Below are positions 3,427 to 32,037 of a stretch of 39,816 nt of DNA, in pieces. The notes under the pieces were generated by a model that was not told where the DNA came from, did no database searches, and saw only the letters and a list, made by a program, of their open reading frames with translations. Location of the stretch: positions 1 to 39,816 of the IMG/VR virus record IMGVR_UViG_2541047807_000001. One strand, given 5' to 3'. This stretch comes from a virus. Its lineage: Duplodnaviria; Heunggongvirae; Uroviricota; Caudoviricetes. A program made the position numbers and the translations under genes. The stretch's first letter is position 1, and each line of letters opens with the position of its first letter.

Positions 3427-4304
3427 GCAATGATATCGCAATCACATCACAACCAGGCGCAACTGTAGGTACTGCTGCGGCAATCTTCAGCCCGGAGGGC
3501 ATGAATCAACTGGTGCGTTTCGCGGAGTTGATGTCACAAAGCAAAGCGACTGTACCGAAACATCTTGAAGGCAAACCTGCCGATTGTCTGGCGGTGACCA
3601 TGCAGGCGGCACAGTGGGGAATGAACCCTTTCGCCGTGGCGCAGAAAACGCATATGGTAAACGGAACGTTAGGCTACGAAGCACAGTTGGTAAACGCGGT
3701 CGTATCCTCTTCCAGCCTGCTAGCGACACGCCTGAATTATCGCTGGAGCGGTGACTGGTCGAATGTTAACGGCAAAACAGATAAATCACCGAATCTGACG
3801 GTAACTGTGTCAGCAGTTCTTAAAGGAGAAGCAGAACCCCGTGAGCTTACCATCAGTATGGCGCAAGCCGGAGTGCGTAACTCTCCATTGTGGGAACAGG
3901 ATCCGCGCCAGCAGCTTGCCTATCTTTGCACGAAACGATGGGCTCGCCTGCACGCTCCTGATGTACTTCTCGGTGTTTACACCCCTGACGAATTACAGGA
4001 AACGGCACCGCGCGTTGAGCGAGACATTACTCCGCAAACGACTACTGCTGCGGGAATGAACAGTCTGATCAACGCTAAACCAGTGAAAAAGCCTGATGAG
4101 CAAACGCGTAAAGCGGATAGCCGTGATCCAGAAGAAATGCTGATGGCCTTTACCAGCGCAGCGATGAATTACAGCACTGTCTCCGAACTGGATAAGGCTT
4201 ACAAATACATTGCACAAAAACTTTCAGATGATGACGAACTGCTGGCAAAAGCCACCGACGTTTACAGCGTTCGTCGGGAAGAATTAAACGAAACATCTAT
4301 GTAA
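3423..4304 (+). CDS. RecT-family single-strand annealing protein
   Basis: Conserved RecT-like core (PADCLAVTMQAAQWGMNPF ... NGTLGYEAQLVNAVV); paired with the upstream exonuclease. Confidence 0.7.
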   Translation: MSNDIAITSQPGATVGTAAAIFSPEGMNQLVRFAELMSQSKATVPKHLEGKPADCLAVTMQAAQWGMNPFAVAQKTHMVNGTLGYEAQLVNAVVSSSSLLATRLNYRWSGDWSNVNGKTDKSPNLTVTVSAVLKGEAEPRELTISMAQAGVRNSPLWEQDPRQQLAYLCTKRWARLHAPDVLLGVYTPDELQETAPRVERDITPQTTTAAGMNSLINAKPVKKPDEQTRKADSRDPEEMLMAFTSAAMNYSTVSELDKAYKYIAQKLSDDDELLAKATDVYSVRREELNETSM

Positions 4305-4711: not shown

Positions 4712-5011
4712 GTGAGAAAGTTAAGCCGACTTGAAAAATATCACATGAACAAGGTTTCAATGCGCCGTCCTTCAAAGGTTATCGCCGTTACTCCTGCGGC
4801 GATAGAGTTCGAAAAACGCGCGATTGAAAGAGAGAAAAAAGGGCAGTTCCGCATTGCCGCTCACCTTTGGCTTCAGTGTATGGATGTTGCTTCTGGTGAT
4901 GTTGAACGTGCAAGGATCGCGGTTCGCAGGGACCAATGTATCACAAAAGGTAACGGCCTTCGCCGTGGCGACTATAGCGGCATAGGATGTTGTGGGGTGG
5001 TTTATGACTAA
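4712..5011 (+). CDS. Hypothetical protein (start uncertain)
   Basis: ORF only; GTG at 4712 or ATG at 4745. Confidence 0.3.
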   Translation: MRKLSRLEKYHMNKVSMRRPSKVIAVTPAAIEFEKRAIEREKKGQFRIAAHLWLQCMDVASGDVERARIAVRRDQCITKGNGLRRGDYSGIGCCGVVYD

Positions 5012-5848: not shown

Positions 5849-7099
5849 TTATTCCCCCGCCATCCACTTCTCAAACTTCGACGGGGAGAACGGAATCAGA
5901 TCCGTATGCTCCCCGTTAATCCAGGAATCAATCATATCGGCCCACTGCTGCAACATGTAGGCGCGCTGTCTGGCGTATTCCGCTTTGTTATATACGGCGC
6001 GCACACCTTTCTGCTCATGTGCCAGAGCCTTTTCAATCCAGTCTGAAGGATAACCAGCCTCATGCAACAACGTACTGGCTGTACGGCGCATATCGTGTAC
6101 GGTGAAGCCCTGAATATGCTCACCATCTTCATTTATTATTTTCACCGTTCTGTCGATCAGAGAGTTCAGCGCGGCATTAGATAATGGCTTCCGGAAATTG
6201 TAACGACCAGGAACCAGATATTCACTTCCACCAGCGCACATCTGCAACCCAACCAATATATCCTGTGCCTGTTTAGGCAGGTAAATAACGTGCGCCCGGC
6301 TTCCCTTCATGCGGTCTGAAGGAATTGTCCATGTCCATTTTTTAAAATCTATTTCATCCCACGTTGCATTGGTGAATTCGCCTTTACGAACCATAGTGAT
6401 AAGCACCAGCTTTAAAGCCATTTTCATAGTGCCCATAGCACCAATGGCATCCAGCGTGCGGAAGAACAGGCCAATTTCTTCTGGTGTCAGTGTTCGCTCT
6501 CGTGGTTTAAATATGGCGATAGACGAAGGTTTAATGTCAGCCGCAGGATTAAACAAACCATGACCACGGTCATTGGCGTGACGGTATACGCTGCTGATGA
6601 TCTCCCTGGCCTGTACTGCTGTTGCCCGACCACCGCGTTCGACAATCCGGTCACACAAATCACGAACCATCGATGTGGTAATTTCAGCCATCATTTTGTT
6701 GCCAAGAACCGGAAGTATGTCACGGTCGATCACCGCCTGCTTCATTGCGCGGGTACTGTCAGCCAGGATGACGTGTTTCATATAACTGTCGGTATGTACC
6801 GCAAACGTCTCGGCACCACGAATCTTTTTGATACCGTCACGTTTAGCCGCAGCCGGCGACTGGCCTGCTTTAAGCAGCTTCTTTGCAGCAATCAGTTCTT
6901 CTCGCGCTTCTGCCAGGCTGATACCGTCACGCCCATACTGCCCGATTACCAGTGTTTCGCGGCGACCGTTGATACGGTAGTCATAGCGAAACGAGACCGT
7001 GCCTGACGTAAGCACAGCTACATACAGCCCGTCACGATCGGAGACCTTGTACAGTTTGTCCTGCGGCTTGAGGTTTTTTAATTTTGTATCGGTAAGCAC
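5849..7099 (-). CDS. Tyrosine recombinase, phage integrase (P4-type with N-terminal arm-binding domain)
   Basis: 416 aa. N-terminal LTDTKLKNLKPQDKLYKVSDRDGLYVAV (arm-binding type) and C-terminal catalytic region with HDMRRTASTLL and a conserved Tyr. Confidence 0.85.
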   Translation of the reverse strand: MLTDTKLKNLKPQDKLYKVSDRDGLYVAVLTSGTVSFRYDYRINGRRETLVIGQYGRDGISLAEAREELIAAKKLLKAGQSPAAAKRDGIKKIRGAETFAVHTDSYMKHVILADSTRAMKQAVIDRDILPVLGNKMMAEITTSMVRDLCDRIVERGGRATAVQAREIISSVYRHANDRGHGLFNPAADIKPSSIAIFKPRERTLTPEEIGLFFRTLDAIGAMGTMKMALKLVLITMVRKGEFTNATWDEIDFKKWTWTIPSDRMKGSRAHVIYLPKQAQDILVGLQMCAGGSEYLVPGRYNFRKPLSNAALNSLIDRTVKIINEDGEHIQGFTVHDMRRTASTLLHEAGYPSDWIEKALAHEQKGVRAVYNKAEYARQRAYMLQQWADMIDSWINGEHTDLIPFSPSKFEKWMAGE

Positions 7100-9754: not shown

Positions 9755-12070
9755 TCATAAAATAGATTTCGTCTTTGTAACAATAATATCTACAAAATCA
9801 CCTGTAGATATAGCTGATGGTACTGTATCTGCAAGAGTAATCTTTTCTGAAGAGATGTTTTGCACATCTAATAATTTATTTTCAACCCCATCCGTATATA
9901 CCAATTTGACATCACTGAATGGAGGGTAATAAGTGACTGTTCCTTGGTATACATATATTTCACTGCCTGAAATTGATTTCACTACATACCTGCCCCTTAC
10001 AAGATTAATTTTGAGTTCAGATAAATCGGTTTTATAACAGGTAATTCCTGAACCAATGTTAGCCATACTAATATCAGTATCACTATAATAAGTAATTGCT
10101 TTTCCTTGTTTTAAGGTGAAGTTATCTTTGCTTTTCCTTGGCAAGGATGTGCTATTTTTGTAATATCTACCAGTTAAGCATAGCCATGAAAATGCAGTAT
10201 TCGCTACATTACCACCAGAATACACAGCTAAACGAATTGCACTAACTGGAACCCCTTCATTATTAATCCTGATCTTAATGGAAGAAATGTTAGCAACAGT
10301 AGCATATCTATGGTTAGATGAATCCCATTGCATAGAAGAAGTTATTGCTTCTGTTTGTGAAGTTATGACATTCCCATCTCCATCTAATGCATACAGGTAA
10401 ATGCGAAACGATGCCGTATCTGCTGAGAATGTAAACATATCACCATTTCTTACTGGTACATCTCCAGATTCCCATAACAACCCAAAATTCCGCATAAAAG
10501 CAAACTTAGAAGAAACTAGGTGACGGATATTATATAAACCATCTACATCTGTTTGATATGCTAATACACCAACTTCTCCATTGTTGGCACTGGATATAAA
10601 TGGGGTGTTAGCATTTAAAGAAAACAATGTTACTTCATCGGATATATTTTCCTGAACATGAAATACTGCATTCCCCTTGCCATTATCAGTTACCTCTACA
10701 TAAGTGTAAGGTGATGGATTGTATGGTTCATTTGTATAGTAAGGAGAACTTAACCATGAAGCCTCAATTGAGTTATTCCACGTATATTCACCAAAGTTAA
10801 TTATCAACTGTTGGTTAGTTGGGGATGATGGATATCGTTCAAAACGAAACCCGTAGAAGTAATTGTTATCACCTCTTTGAATATCAATTTTACCTGCCCC
10901 CTCCATAGTTCCACCATAAAACTTATTGTGGTTATGATGATATGGATTATCAGCGAAAATGATATTATTCGTACGATTCAGATAAAAATAGTTTTCATTT
11001 ATCCATCCGTTCTCAACTCCAAGAAAATGAATTGTATCGACCTTTTTCAGGTTAAAGGTTGAGTATGCTATTGAATAATCCGTCGATGCCACCGAAGCAT
11101 TATAATTTGCATATAACTGTAAGTAGTCGCAACGCTCAATGTTAATATGCTGCCCTTTTGCCCCGATAATACGAATATCCGGTGTCGTTTCAGATGAAAT
11201 ACCAGAATTTCTGATAATCGTTCCGAAGTTTTGTCTTGGGTTGTTAGGGTTTGATGCATTCCCGCCAAGCAATACCCCTATTCCTGAGTGGGATATGGTA
11301 AAAACAGCATTGGTCATTTCGAGGCTGACATTACGAAGATTTAATGTCTCCGTAATAATAAAATTACCTTCCGCTCGTAATGTTCTGGATGATTCTCGTG
11401 CATATTCTGCAGCCAGGATCAATGCAGATGTATCATCTGTTATACCATCGCCTTTTGCCCCAAAATCGCGAACACTAACGGTGTCTCTCATCTTATCCTG
11501 GAACGTTCGGTATACTGCTCCAGAACCATACTGAATAAACCAACCAAAACCACCAACAACCCCGGCGATTGCAGCATCGACATAATTACGCATTGAGCGA
11601 TTATTTACAGCGTCCTGCTCAAGTGATGGATCTGCAAGGTTAGAAATTTTGTTTTGCTTTGCATCGTAATATTTTGCAAGCAAAGATGGTTTCATCAATG
11701 CACGTCTGAACCACCCAAAACATTGCTGGATCAGCATCGTCAGGTAGTCAAAAGCATCTTCATGCACTTCGGGGAAAAATTTTCCCTGATTGCGAAGATC
11801 TGTCTCCTGCACTACATCAAGCACACGATCTATCGTAATTCGCCAGCCAGCAGCAAGCGGAGACGGCAGAACCACTGAACCGCCACTATAAGTGCCCGCC
11901 CCAGTTACCGTATAACCGGTATCCAGAACCAATTCTGTTACGTTCCCGTTCAGGTCAGACACCTGAACAACCAGGTCTGATTTTCTGAAAATTCGAAAAG
12001 TATACGGAAACGATGTCGTAACGCCGTTACCTGTGTATTCGTTGTGGTCAACTTCGGTTGAGACCGTCAT
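9755..12070 (-). CDS. Tailspike / receptor-binding protein with T7 gp17-like N-terminal adaptor and pectate-lyase-like beta-helix
   Basis: N-terminus MTVSTEVDHNEYTGNGVTTSFPYTFRIF is tail-fiber-adaptor-like; VRDFGAKGDGITDDT is a beta-helix depolymerase signature. The gene is visibly AT-rich versus its neighbours. Confidence 0.8.
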   Translation of the reverse strand: MTVSTEVDHNEYTGNGVTTSFPYTFRIFRKSDLVVQVSDLNGNVTELVLDTGYTVTGAGTYSGGSVVLPSPLAAGWRITIDRVLDVVQETDLRNQGKFFPEVHEDAFDYLTMLIQQCFGWFRRALMKPSLLAKYYDAKQNKISNLADPSLEQDAVNNRSMRNYVDAAIAGVVGGFGWFIQYGSGAVYRTFQDKMRDTVSVRDFGAKGDGITDDTSALILAAEYARESSRTLRAEGNFIITETLNLRNVSLEMTNAVFTISHSGIGVLLGGNASNPNNPRQNFGTIIRNSGISSETTPDIRIIGAKGQHINIERCDYLQLYANYNASVASTDYSIAYSTFNLKKVDTIHFLGVENGWINENYFYLNRTNNIIFADNPYHHNHNKFYGGTMEGAGKIDIQRGDNNYFYGFRFERYPSSPTNQQLIINFGEYTWNNSIEASWLSSPYYTNEPYNPSPYTYVEVTDNGKGNAVFHVQENISDEVTLFSLNANTPFISSANNGEVGVLAYQTDVDGLYNIRHLVSSKFAFMRNFGLLWESGDVPVRNGDMFTFSADTASFRIYLYALDGDGNVITSQTEAITSSMQWDSSNHRYATVANISSIKIRINNEGVPVSAIRLAVYSGGNVANTAFSWLCLTGRYYKNSTSLPRKSKDNFTLKQGKAITYYSDTDISMANIGSGITCYKTDLSELKINLVRGRYVVKSISGSEIYVYQGTVTYYPPFSDVKLVYTDGVENKLLDVQNISSEKITLADTVPSAISTGDFVDIIVTKTKSIL

Positions 12071-12175
12071 GTTAAATCTCCAGATAGTCGCAGCACCCGT
12101 TGCGCCGCATATCTGGTTATTCTATTACCCATAAAACCATATATGGATAGAAAGACTGTGAATATGAATAGATAT

Positions 12176-12190
12176 TACCTTTCAGGTAAT
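12176..12190. promoter_or_regulatory. Repressor operator-type site TTACCtttcaGGTAA
   Basis: Perfect TTACC-N5-GGTAA palindrome upstream of the antirepressor-like gene. Confidence 0.5.
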
Positions 12191-12570: not shown

Positions 12571-12663
12571 ATTTACATCGCACTCCTCTTGTGCCATAGT
12601 AATCAGGCACTGGCAAAATCCAGTGCCGGGATTGGCGTCCCGGGTTACTACAGAGGCACATAT

Positions 12664-12687
12664 GCCGCATAAGCGGTTTTTTTATGT
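12664..12687 (+). terminator. Rho-independent terminator
   Basis: ccgc-ataa-gcgg hairpin followed by a run of seven T. Confidence 0.5.
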
Positions 12688-12837
12688 GTAAAGCGCACCT
12701 ATTCTATGGTGGGCTGTGTGGGGGCACCGAAAGGTGCGCCGGGTCCTTTGTAGCCGGTTACGCCAACCCTGCACAGTTCACCACCAACCGATTGGCGTCG
12801 GTAGTGGTGATTAACCTAACTACAAAGGTGATCACTA

Positions 12838-30708: not shown

Positions 30709-30915
30709 TTACTGACCAAGTAGCGTTTTACCGCTGGTATTAGCGGTTGATGTGTCGCCCTGAGAACCGGTAAGCAGCGTAGAACTACGACCAGCAGCAG
30801 CGCGACGGCGACGTGTTTCTTCGTCGCGGGCATCAACAACAGCGGCATCCTGCTCCTGTGGTGCTGCCTGAACTTCTGGTGTTGCAGGCACTGATGGTGA
30901 GCTACCCATGCACAT
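30709..30915 (-). CDS. Small hypothetical protein upstream of the portal
   Basis: 68-aa low-complexity ORF with SD GGAG about 9 nt upstream. Confidence 0.3.
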   Translation of the reverse strand: MCMGSSPSVPATPEVQAAPQEQDAAVVDARDEETRRRRAAAGRSSTLLTGSQGDTSTANTSGKTLLGQ

Positions 30916-30983
30916 ATCAATGACTCCGTACGCAATTAAATTATTACCAATTTAACCACATATGATTTATTTATCGTAGATAG

Positions 30984-31020
30984 TTGACATTTAACGCACG
31001 AATTATTACCTTTCAGGTAA
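30984..31020 (+). promoter_or_regulatory. Promoter-like element with overlapping repressor operator
   Basis: TTGACA (30984-30989), 17-nt spacer, weak -10 TACCTT overlapping TTACCtttcaGGTAA (31006-31020). Reads toward the leader, tRNA and moron gene. Confidence 0.4.
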
Positions 31021-31342
31021 GCAAAGAGTTCATTCCGGTTATTAACCTGACTGGCTTGTCGTTAAATTGAACAGGTGGAGTGAGCTTTTATTTTGAGCAG
31101 TACGGCGTATGGCACATGCGCCGATAGCGGTCTGGATACGTTTAAGGGGCACCCTCCCTTGCTCGGGCAAACGAACCAGGTAGCCGGAATGTGCAAGTCG
31201 AGCGGTTTTATTCCGCGCACGGGGATTCACCATCCCGGCGATTCGGTGTGACGCCTCGGAAGAGACGAGGGTACAACGATGAGAGCATTTATGGAGCCGC
31301 GACAAAGTGTGGCGCCTTAACAGGCTAAGTGCTCTCAGCGTT

Positions 31343-31419
31343 GTGGCATTAGCTCAGTTGGACAGAGCAACCGCCTTCTAAGCGGTTGGTTGCAGGTTCG
31401 AATCCTGCATGCCACGCCA
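31343..31419 (+). tRNA. tRNA-Arg (anticodon TCT)
   Basis: Hand-folded cloverleaf: acceptor GTGGCAT/ATGCCAC, D-stem GCTC/GAGC, anticodon stem ACCGC/GCGGT with loop CTTCTAA, T-stem GCAGG/CCTGC with loop TTCGAAT, 3' GCCA. 77 nt. Confidence 0.85.
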
Positions 31420-31462
31420 GAATCACGCCTAAGGACCGTGATGCCAGAAGTTCCAGGTGCTT

Positions 31463-31506
31463 GGCGGTGATGGTTTCCCTTGAAGGACTATCACCGCCCT
31501 TTTTAC
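31463..31506 (+). terminator. Terminator-like hairpin after the tRNA
   Basis: ggcggtgatggtttcccttgaaggactatcaccgcc stem-loop followed by ctttttac. Confidence 0.45.
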
Positions 31507-31582
31507 AGCAGGACGCCATTGCGATGACTTCATGCTGTAAACCAGTACAGCCACGGAAGGCATAACTCATTGCTTCCAGTTC

Positions 31583-31606
31583 GCCCGGTTCGCCGGGCAT
31601 TTTTTT
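31583..31606 (+). terminator. Intrinsic terminator / attenuator-like hairpin immediately upstream of the moron RBS
   Basis: gcccgg-ttcg-ccgggc hairpin followed by at plus seven T, ending about 11 nt before ATG 31618 with only the RBS aaggtgag between. Confidence 0.5.
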
Positions 31607-31617
31607 AAGGTGAGATC

Positions 31618-32037
31618 ATGAAGACAATTGATATGTTGGCTAAGTATCTAAATGAATGGCCATTAAAATATTCTCGTATCGTTCAGGCTGAAGACTGCAT
31701 TTTTTATGGCGTTTTTGCTGGTAATGAAATGCATTACGAAGTAATTCAGAGTGAGGGACTGGCCGGGTTAACTCTTAGCGAAGACCATGGTACTAGCGTT
31801 ACGTTCCATGACTGGATAACAGCACAACGTTATGAAATGGAAAAAGGCGATGTGTTTGATATTTCTCGATCTGTTTACGCTAAAGCAAAAAGTGATAATG
31901 ATTACATGAGCGAACACTTATACAACATGAAGTTACAATGCCTGCATGCGGCGCTTATTCAGAATGGGCACTTCGATAAAACAAGTGCCATCAATATTGC
32001 GGAAGCCATCAACGCTGGATTTAATGCCATTAAGTAA
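31618..32037 (+). CDS. Hypothetical moron protein (AT-rich, opposite orientation inside the late operon)
   Basis: 139-aa ORF with RBS aaggtgag; AT-rich; followed by a palindrome and terminator. Confidence 0.55.
   Translation: MKTIDMLAKYLNEWPLKYSRIVQAEDCIFYGVFAGNEMHYEVIQSEGLAGLTLSEDHGTSVTFHDWITAQRYEMEKGDVFDISRSVYAKAKSDNDYMSEHLYNMKLQCLHAALIQNGHFDKTSAINIAEAINAGFNAIK

Follow-up and report, generated by a model that had tools for sequence, protein, structure and literature searches.

The window that we analysed, a stretch of 39,816 nucleotides of tailed-phage DNA taken as a whole, is placed by BLAST in the phiV10/epsilon15-like Uetakevirus group, with 98-99.6% identity across the region discussed here. 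Between the portal-side genes and the terminase, both carried on the minus strand, lies a plus-strand island made of a structured element, a tRNA-Arg(TCT) at 31343-31419 and an ORF of 139 amino acids. An initial annotation had pointed to a GC-rich stretch with AT-rich flanks at 31080-31340, and sequence and contrast are as it described: GC content is 0.55-0.60 over 31100-31500, against 0.32-0.38 at 30900-31100 and 0.34 at 31600-31700. The unit extends beyond those limits, past the tRNA to a terminator, and it stands behind a repressor-controlled early promoter. In order, it consists of the promoter, a pseudoknotted core, a long hairpin (P6), the tRNA-Arg, a second conserved hairpin (P7) and the terminator. 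The features that surround the core and P6 are the following.

30984-31012, plus strand: candidate sigma-70 promoter, read from the sequence, with -35 TTGACA at 30984-30989, a 17-nt spacer and -10 TACCTT at 31007-31012.
31006-31020, no strand assigned: operator-like palindrome TTACCTTTCAGGTAA, overlapping the -10 and the predicted transcription start.
1143, 1855, 1917, 12175, 12556, 13595, 31006, 34214, 38471 and 38533, 15 nt each: sites of the form TTACC-N5-GGTAA.
31343-31419, plus strand: tRNA-Arg (anticodon TCT) with encoded CCA, called by ARAGORN and scoring 73 bits with the Rfam tRNA model.
31422-31442, plus strand: conserved 3' hairpin P7, AUCACG-CCUAAGGAC-CGUGAU, which many relatives have after the cargo slot, irrespective of its content.
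31463-31505, plus strand: intrinsic terminator from a terminator scan, with a 14-bp stem GGCGGUGAUGG...CUAUCACCGCC (31463-31498) and a U-run.
31506-31606, plus strand: conserved hairpin ACAGCA...UGCUGU, then, ahead of the next gene, a second intrinsic terminator (31583-31598 plus a T-run).
31618-32037, plus strand: ORF of 139 amino acids, phrog_4846, function unknown, the sole same-strand gene downstream.

The candidate promoter has a weak -10 and a predicted start near 31019, and a stricter consensus scan did not call it. The same arrangement, TTGAC(A/C)-17-TACCTT, is nevertheless found about 90-97 nt upstream of helix P1 in 32 distinct Uetakevirus-type upstream sequences. The palindrome that covers its -10 belongs to a series: TTACC-N5-GGTAA occurs at 10 exact sites in the window for 0.02 expected. 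To judge from sequence, these ten palindromes resemble the scattered operators of a primary repressor like C1 of P1. An 18-mer at 12173-12190, identical to the copy at the element promoter, lies upstream of an isrK/C4 immunity-type region. There, Rfam models detect an isrK Hfq-binding RNA at 12607-12683 directly followed by a C4 antisense RNA at 12702-12788, a P1/P7-type immI arrangement that is found here in an epsilon15-group podovirus.

At the 3' end of the unit, 156 of 181 distinct loci have a terminator-like hairpin with a T-run behind the element, among which a GGCGG.../...CCGCC stem recurs. The ACAGCA...UGCUGU hairpin begins within the U-run of the first terminator, which it could sequester, and it recurs after the terminator in two other loci (L039 and L080). 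Phage cdtI has a longer analogue of this hairpin after its own terminator (L001, 3404-3500). Nothing resembling a promoter was found in the stretch that separates the element from the ORF at 31618-32037.

Structure and conservation of the RNA

When the sequence was folded by itself and compared with shuffles, z-scores of -2.1 (plus strand) and -2.8 (minus strand) were obtained. Because the folding energy beats the shuffles only modestly, the case for structure rests on comparison with relatives. We built a structure by hand (P1, P2, P4, P5 and the pseudoknots PK1 and PK2) and tested it on alignment A2, which holds thirty sequences, each less than 94% identical to the others. In this alignment 97.8% of the cells are paired, and at 11 pairs both partners change; no shuffle out of 500 reaches the covariation score or paired fraction observed, and sliding the partners by 1-3 columns as a control lowers pairing to 28-49%. 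A model-free ranking by mutual information brings the same helices to the top, including PK2, at 93-100% Watson-Crick pairs. The outcome was the same when a covariance model made from A2 realigned 62 distinct sequences, chromosomal ones included. Compensatory changes thus go beyond the controls, as for a structured non-coding RNA in general. A covariance model of the element (R1) finds one copy in the window, at 148 bits, the next best match reaching 6.8 bits.

The region 31102-31343 of the window is a conserved, non-coding, structured RNA, composed of a 170-nt core and the long hairpin P6. The core has four covarying helices and two pseudoknots, of which PK1 is predicted. Its parts, and P6, are laid out as follows.

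31103-31123, plus strand: hairpin P1, CGGCGU/GCGCCG (31103-31108 with 31118-31123), with the invariant loop AUGGCACAU.
31112-31117 with 31189-31194, plus strand: predicted pseudoknot PK1, GCACAU with AUGUGC.
31131-31180, plus strand: helix P2 (31131-31135 with 31176-31180), enclosing a tip of variable length.
31179-31197, plus strand: near-invariant 19-mer GGUAGCCGGAAUGUGCAAG, which holds the 3' strand of PK1.
31202-31216, plus strand: small hairpin P3, GCGG-UUUUAUU-CCGC, seen in alignments, in a region that aligns poorly.
31222-31248, plus strand: H-type pseudoknot formed by P4 and PK2.
31222-31225 with 31233-31236, plus strand: P4, with both-side changes in three of four pairs.
31228-31231 with 31245-31248, plus strand: PK2, CACC with GGUG.
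31254-31270, plus strand: hairpin P5, CCUCG-GAAGAGA-CGAGG (31254-31258 with 31266-31270), with a conserved loop.
31274-31343, plus strand: long hairpin P6 with a variable tip, its last base being the first base of the tRNA.

Individual pairs show how the helices are maintained. In P1, the column pair 7:19 changes from G-C to A-U in 11 of 30 and 26 of 62 sequences and ranks among the top mutual-information pairs; in P2, the pair 33:87 changes from C-G to U-A in 11 of 30 and 17 of 62. Among 104 sequences, a pair of PK2 reads C-G 76 times and A-U 28 times, and so is always Watson-Crick, while three to four of the five P5 pairs change on both sides. P3 varies in both sequence and length. For P6, RNAalifold on 18 diverse sequences gives 16 pairs, and compensatory double changes occur in 8 of these; the replacement of entire stems is visible among relatives. 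PK1 is of another kind. Its six complementary bases are invariant on both strands in 30 of 30 sequences, and RNAalifold picks the same pairing; since this invariance leaves no covariation, PK1 stays a prediction. The 19-mer that holds its 3' strand, GGTAGCCGGAATGTGCAAG, is identical in 115 of 123 elements that were retrieved via a different anchor, among the matches listed.

Folding and covariation in homologous phages had been proposed as a check by the initial annotation, and the helices do covary. In fact, three of the four inverted repeats that it had quoted are conserved helices with compensatory changes: ggcgtatggcacatgcgcc is helix P1, cggggattcaccatcccg is P4 and gacgcctcggaagagacgaggg is P5. 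The fourth, gggcaccctccc, lies within the length-variable tip of P2.

Three open reading frames overlap the element.

31093-31251, plus strand: TTG/GTG-start ORF of 52 amino acids.
31191-31328, plus strand: TTG/GTG-start ORF of 45 amino acids.
31042-31305, antisense: Arg-rich ORF of 87 amino acids.

The earlier statement that no plus-strand ORF exceeds about 25 codons thus holds for ATG starts, but not for TTG or GTG starts. None of the three frames is conserved among homologues, several of which have stop codons in all six frames. Moreover, length differences among homologues are spread over the three classes modulo 3 (12/9/9), so that indels are not multiples of three. A protein-coding gene was rejected on these grounds. 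The initial annotation had itself named a conserved coding frame as evidence that would speak against a structured non-coding region; none was found in the homologues, and its reading of the region as structured non-coding RNA is borne out by covariation together with the lack of a conserved frame. Hypothetical proteins are annotated over the element in the GenBank records of mEp460, mEp390, Ayreon, Tyrion, JL22 and others. Because no frame is conserved, these are likely spurious ORF calls.

Cargo, carriers and genomic position

The tRNA is an optional cargo of the element. Among the matches listed, an adjacent same-strand tRNA is present in 44 of 126 loci and absent from 82, and where present it is either Arg-TCT, located 3' of the element, or Ile-CAT, located 5' of it. 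In relatives with other cargo, the slot is flanked by GUUGUGG and CCAC(A)AC. What it holds differs: a tRNA-Arg(TCT) in Uetakeviruses and some others, a pseudo-tRNA in L072, nothing in the type represented by L005 (phage BUCT708), and in many lambdoids a module of 100-130 nt with two hairpins whose loops are complementary. The latter module (L013, L011, L053, L080 and others) sits between GUUGUGG and CCACAAC and is closed by a 9-bp stem. Its loops read GCUGAU:AUCAGC, and both are changed in L080, to GCUAAU:AUUAGC; from these two sequence variants, the module looks like a kissing-loop, tRNA-elbow-like module. With ARAGORN, default settings gave nothing on the non-tRNA cargos, and relaxed settings gave noise besides the L072 pseudo-tRNA. 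Phage P1 has the core only, 15 nt past a tRNA-Ile(CAT) and ahead of ban, with no terminator. Throughout, the core is more strongly conserved than any cargo.

Several other arrangements were seen. Pseudo-tRNAs or lone T-arm hairpins (GGTTCGATTCC) occur at helix tips, in L099 and L095 at the tip of P6 and in L072 in the slot. The minus strand of L022 carries two cores about 800 nt apart, at 3995-4154 and 4802-4959, the second being more divergent (114 bits). A degenerate tRNA array was considered and rejected, as the tRNA model matches nothing in 31085-31342.

The element is widespread. Distant BLAST matches of 31085-31342, at 70-83% identity, lie in very different phages. Lambdoid carriers include cdtI, mEp460, mEp390, 2H10, Ayreon and Stx2c- and Stx2a-converting phages; O157 typing phages also carry it, as do P1, P7, D6 and SJ46, Klebsiella and Enterobacter phages and one reported Stenotrophomonas phage. 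Stenotrophomonas, the recorded host of BUCT708, is an outlier. Scans of IMG/VR with two independent anchors returned at least 120 loci each. Among complete E. coli genomes, 1066 of 5426 (about 20%) contain the element, where RefSeq annotates the tRNA alone. When one genome per species was scanned, matches came from Escherichia, Citrobacter, Klebsiella, Enterobacter, Kosakonia, Kluyvera, Phytobacter, Buttiauxella, Erwinia and relatives. The exact 19-mer is also present on short contigs of two metagenome-assembled genomes that bear the labels Oscillospiraceae and Bacillota (L196 and L208), probably through contamination with enterobacterial phage DNA during binning.

The element is probably an undescribed RNA family of temperate phages of Enterobacterales. 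The Rfam/Infernal scan suggested by the initial annotation returned no RNA family for 31080-31340 besides the neighbouring tRNA. In fact, Rfam 15, applied at the gathering score and at E <= 10 over 30900-31650, gave the tRNA only, and no GOLLD, ROOL, tmRNA, RNase P, T-box, group I intron or Y RNA. By eye, the region had some likeness to SRP RNA, RNase P RNA and Y RNA, but no model supported these readings and they were dropped. A literature search by sequence string and by topic retrieved no description of the element. A large catalogue of unnamed viral RNA candidates may include it: among its 10,006 entries is a motif that sometimes overlaps tRNA-Arg (PMC10690425).

The position of the element in lambdoid phages is well defined. 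In cdtI, the stop of cI is followed by a terminator, a promoter (TTGACA-16-CATAAT), the element, a further terminator and the plus-strand early genes. The spacer of this promoter contains a copy of a palindrome that is found three times in the cI-cro intergenic region, and because of this match we identify the promoter as PL/OL. The same operator-bearing PL arrangement, with different operators, is present in mEp390 and BUCT708. Thus, the element lies directly behind a CI-operator-controlled PL in lambdoids of three immunity types. It starts about 45-55 nt past the predicted transcription start, and no promoter-like site was found between the cdtI element and the early-left genes. More generally, the nearest upstream gene is a CI-type repressor in 94 of 176 loci. 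A lysogenic moron in the rex position, co-transcribed with cI, was rejected as an explanation because a terminator and an operator-bearing promoter intervene. In phage P1, the core lies in the ban operon, which is annotated in the record as C1-controlled at Oban. The RNA is therefore found behind a prophage-repressor promoter in three unrelated architectures, which suggests that it would be made at induction or infection and not in the lysogen.

Downstream of the element, an intrinsic terminator and then genes on the same strand are the rule. The ORFs behind the element are unrelated between loci, forming 34 clusters in 163 loci. The early-left genes of cdtI and Stx2a_1447 share hypothetical proteins, one of them in the PHROGs 5'-nucleotide phosphatase family, and by protein family they appear to match the yfdP/yfdQ/yfbR set contained in LLS-type early-left operons (PMC12315714). 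In Uetakeviruses, just one or two small ORFs follow, and in L084 the core is succeeded by a bidirectional terminator and a convergent gene. With the cargo, the distance from core to terminator shifts by hundreds of bases, and no alternative pairing between core and terminator was seen. No homologue of N or Nun was detected in 216 loci, in a search that used approximate N queries and, as a positive control, Nun. Likewise, no N-like protein was found among the first downstream ORFs, and no protein partner is shared across lambdoids, P1 and Uetakeviruses.

Possible functions and comparison with known systems

To explain these results we tentatively propose, with somewhat less than even confidence, that the element is a large, cis-acting and processive antiterminator RNA, put-like in action but outside the put family. 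We favour this reading because of the put-like map position, the absence of N, and the fact that mEp460 carries the element at that very place. Upon loss of the repressor, the RNA would be transcribed at once. The invariant 19-nt strand of the core and its P1 loop, joined by the predicted PK1, would keep the core bound to the polymerase that is transcribing it, and the modified polymerase would resist the downstream terminator or terminators. As an outcome, the early-left genes would be licensed in lambdoids, and the ORF at 31618-32037 in the phage studied here. A larger and unrelated fold would then perform the task that put RNA has in HK022. The tRNA would travel as a passenger within a guaranteed early transcript, from which RNase P would cut it out at 31342/31343, also freeing the 5' domain. 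Several points fit with this proposal: phage P1 has a core-only copy within an operon, the element is restricted to Enterobacterales and its presumed interface is extremely conserved. In addition, the variable distance between core and terminator fits better with a processive modification of the polymerase than with a switch between alternative hairpins. Other points stand against it, namely the conservation of P6, cargo stem, P7 and terminator along with the core, the recurrent tRNA-like modules, the tiny Uetakevirus operon, the convergent gene in L084 and the weak promoter in the window.

Conservation of P6 and P7 and of the cargo and terminator stems suggests that the finished RNA molecule itself matters. 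The main and serious rival, which we hold to be less likely, is that the RNA is a stand-alone, trans-acting early non-coding RNA, whose product would be either a terminated transcript of about 400-480 nt or a 5' domain of about 240-320 nt released by RNase P. Such an RNA would bind a protein or self-assemble, with tRNA or tRNA-like modules serving as functional decorations, and would be comparable to GOLLD and ROOL. The unit does have its own promoter and its own conserved terminator, with conservation and covariation reaching P6, the cargo stem and P7; it exists in cargo-less (L005) and core-plus-terminator (L084) forms, tRNAs, pseudo-tRNAs and T-arm-like hairpins have been inserted recurrently at its helix tips, and the genes behind it are unrelated. 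However, a stand-alone RNA would leave unexplained both the link to repressor-controlled early promoters in three unrelated phage groups and the passage of terminators in N-less early-left operons. It also has to contend with the P1 copy, a core alone inside an operon and without a terminator, and Rfam shows no similarity to GOLLD or ROOL. A dedicated tRNA leader, in which the 5' domain would stabilise, fold or time the maturation of tRNA-Arg(UCU), is quite improbable. The initial annotation had offered a tRNA precursor leader among its possibilities, and the label is literally true in this phage because element and tRNA share one promoter and one terminator; in fact, the 5' domain stops precisely where RNase P would cut a high-scoring, CCA-encoding tRNA, and a same-strand tRNA adjoins 44 of the 126 listed loci. 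It is not the defining trait of the element, though: the 82 listed relatives that have no adjacent tRNA, some with an empty slot, largely refute it as a general explanation, the tRNA of phage P1 is upstream of the core rather than downstream, and no cargo is as conserved as the core.

The invariant pseudoknotted core upstream of an intrinsic terminator and genes could also be read as a sensing attenuator, in which a ligand, a protein or an uncharged tRNA sets the terminator, or as a nut-like site with P5 as boxB for an unrecognised N-like protein, given that P5 is a covarying stem with a fixed GAAGAGA loop that resembles GAAGA, which we take to be the boxB loop of lambda nutL. We consider either version improbable. 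The attenuator is at odds with a core-terminator distance that varies by hundreds of bases and with the lack of any alternative pairing; the nut-like site would have no common protein partner. A boxA/Nus-type signal was rejected, as the UGCUCUU-like string is the 3' strand of P6, which varies freely and covaries, and in L084, L028 and L041 the exact boxA-like strings belong to the tails of terminators. A gene-specific 5' UTR or riboswitch does not agree with the 34 downstream clusters and the variable terminator spacing. It is very improbable, finally, that the locus is a small protein gene or a site acting at the level of DNA (an attachment site, a recombination hotspot or the end of a mobile element). 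ORFs of 45-87 codons do overlap the element, some GenBank records annotate proteins over it and its mosaic contexts suggest horizontal movement, but homologues have six-frame stops and indels that break any frame. Compensatory substitutions, including those in a pseudoknot, are the pattern of paired RNA, the element keeps its strand relative to promoters and terminators and no integrase is adjacent, so the recombination target that the initial annotation had envisaged finds no support.

Many lambdoid phages, Stx2-converting ones included, have no N, and the mechanism of their early antitermination is an acknowledged gap (PMC12315714). If true, the antiterminator reading would explain early antitermination in LLS/mEp460-type phages. 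We envision that the element could represent a new class of polymerase-modifying antiterminator RNAs with a double-pseudoknot core of 170 nt that is unrelated to put, licensing the early operons of N-less lambdoid, P1-like and epsilon15-like phages and carrying tRNAs or tRNA-like modules at induction, a view that we regard as possible rather than probable. To our knowledge, the put RNAs of HK022 are the sole natural family of phage RNAs that confer protein-free terminator resistance on RNA polymerase. A conserved and easily mutated RNA, located exactly between PL and the first terminator, makes N-less antitermination directly testable. Adding the element to RNA family databases would stop the spurious annotation of ORFs over it, and the tolerated tRNA inserts suggest a natural scaffold for RNA expression.

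Known phage RNAs offer several points of comparison. GOLLD and ROOL adjoin tRNAs and at times contain them. Like the element, they are large, multi-helix, pseudoknotted and phage-borne RNAs of unknown function, whose structures have been described (PMC12286853). The element is smaller (about 330-480 nt), belongs to Enterobacterales rather than to Lactobacillales or rumen metagenomes, and is fixed behind repressor-controlled promoters. The species 1 and 2 RNAs of T4 are structured and non-coding, have no assigned function and come from precursors that also contain phage tRNAs. They are similar to the element in being borne on a tRNA precursor, with release by RNase P expected; however, T4 is virulent, and its two RNAs are encoded inside a tRNA cluster instead of forming promoter-proximal leaders.

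Closer in position are the RNAs found between PL and the early genes, nutL in lambda and putL in HK022. The nut sites of lambda (nutL/nutR) are likewise the first transcribed element of the early-left operon, and P5 of the element has a purine-rich, GAAGA-type loop. Unlike nut, the element has no N homologue nearby and no conserved single-stranded boxA, and it is also present in P1 and Uetakeviruses. With putL/putR of HK022 and the putL-like RNA of HK639, it shares a position behind a CI-controlled PL, in N-less phages and ahead of terminators, and both put and the element are restricted to enterobacterial phages. The HK639 record (L214) annotates a putL-like antiterminator RNA at 6188-6313 and an 'M3-like RNA' at 9911-9970, downstream of cII. 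The sole resemblance is between helix P1 of the element (CGGCGUAU/AUGCGUCG) and stem I of put (CGGCGCGU/AUGCGUCG). The put RNAs are about 70 nt long, fold into two stem-loops with a triplex and attach to the beta' zinc-binding domain (PMC9378689). In contrast, four helices and two pseudoknots make up the 170-nt core of the element, which also has P6, the cargo slot and its own terminator and is 2.5 to 6 times longer. Also unlike put, no second copy was found on the PR side. Homology to put was sought by covariance model and went undetected: R1 has no match at HK022 putL, HK022 putR or HK639 putL, its best score being 8.9 bits in an AT-rich stretch elsewhere, and Rfam contains no put family. 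A promoter-proximal phage RNA that governs early transcription is a kind of RNA known from put, and it is to this kind that the element most likely belongs.
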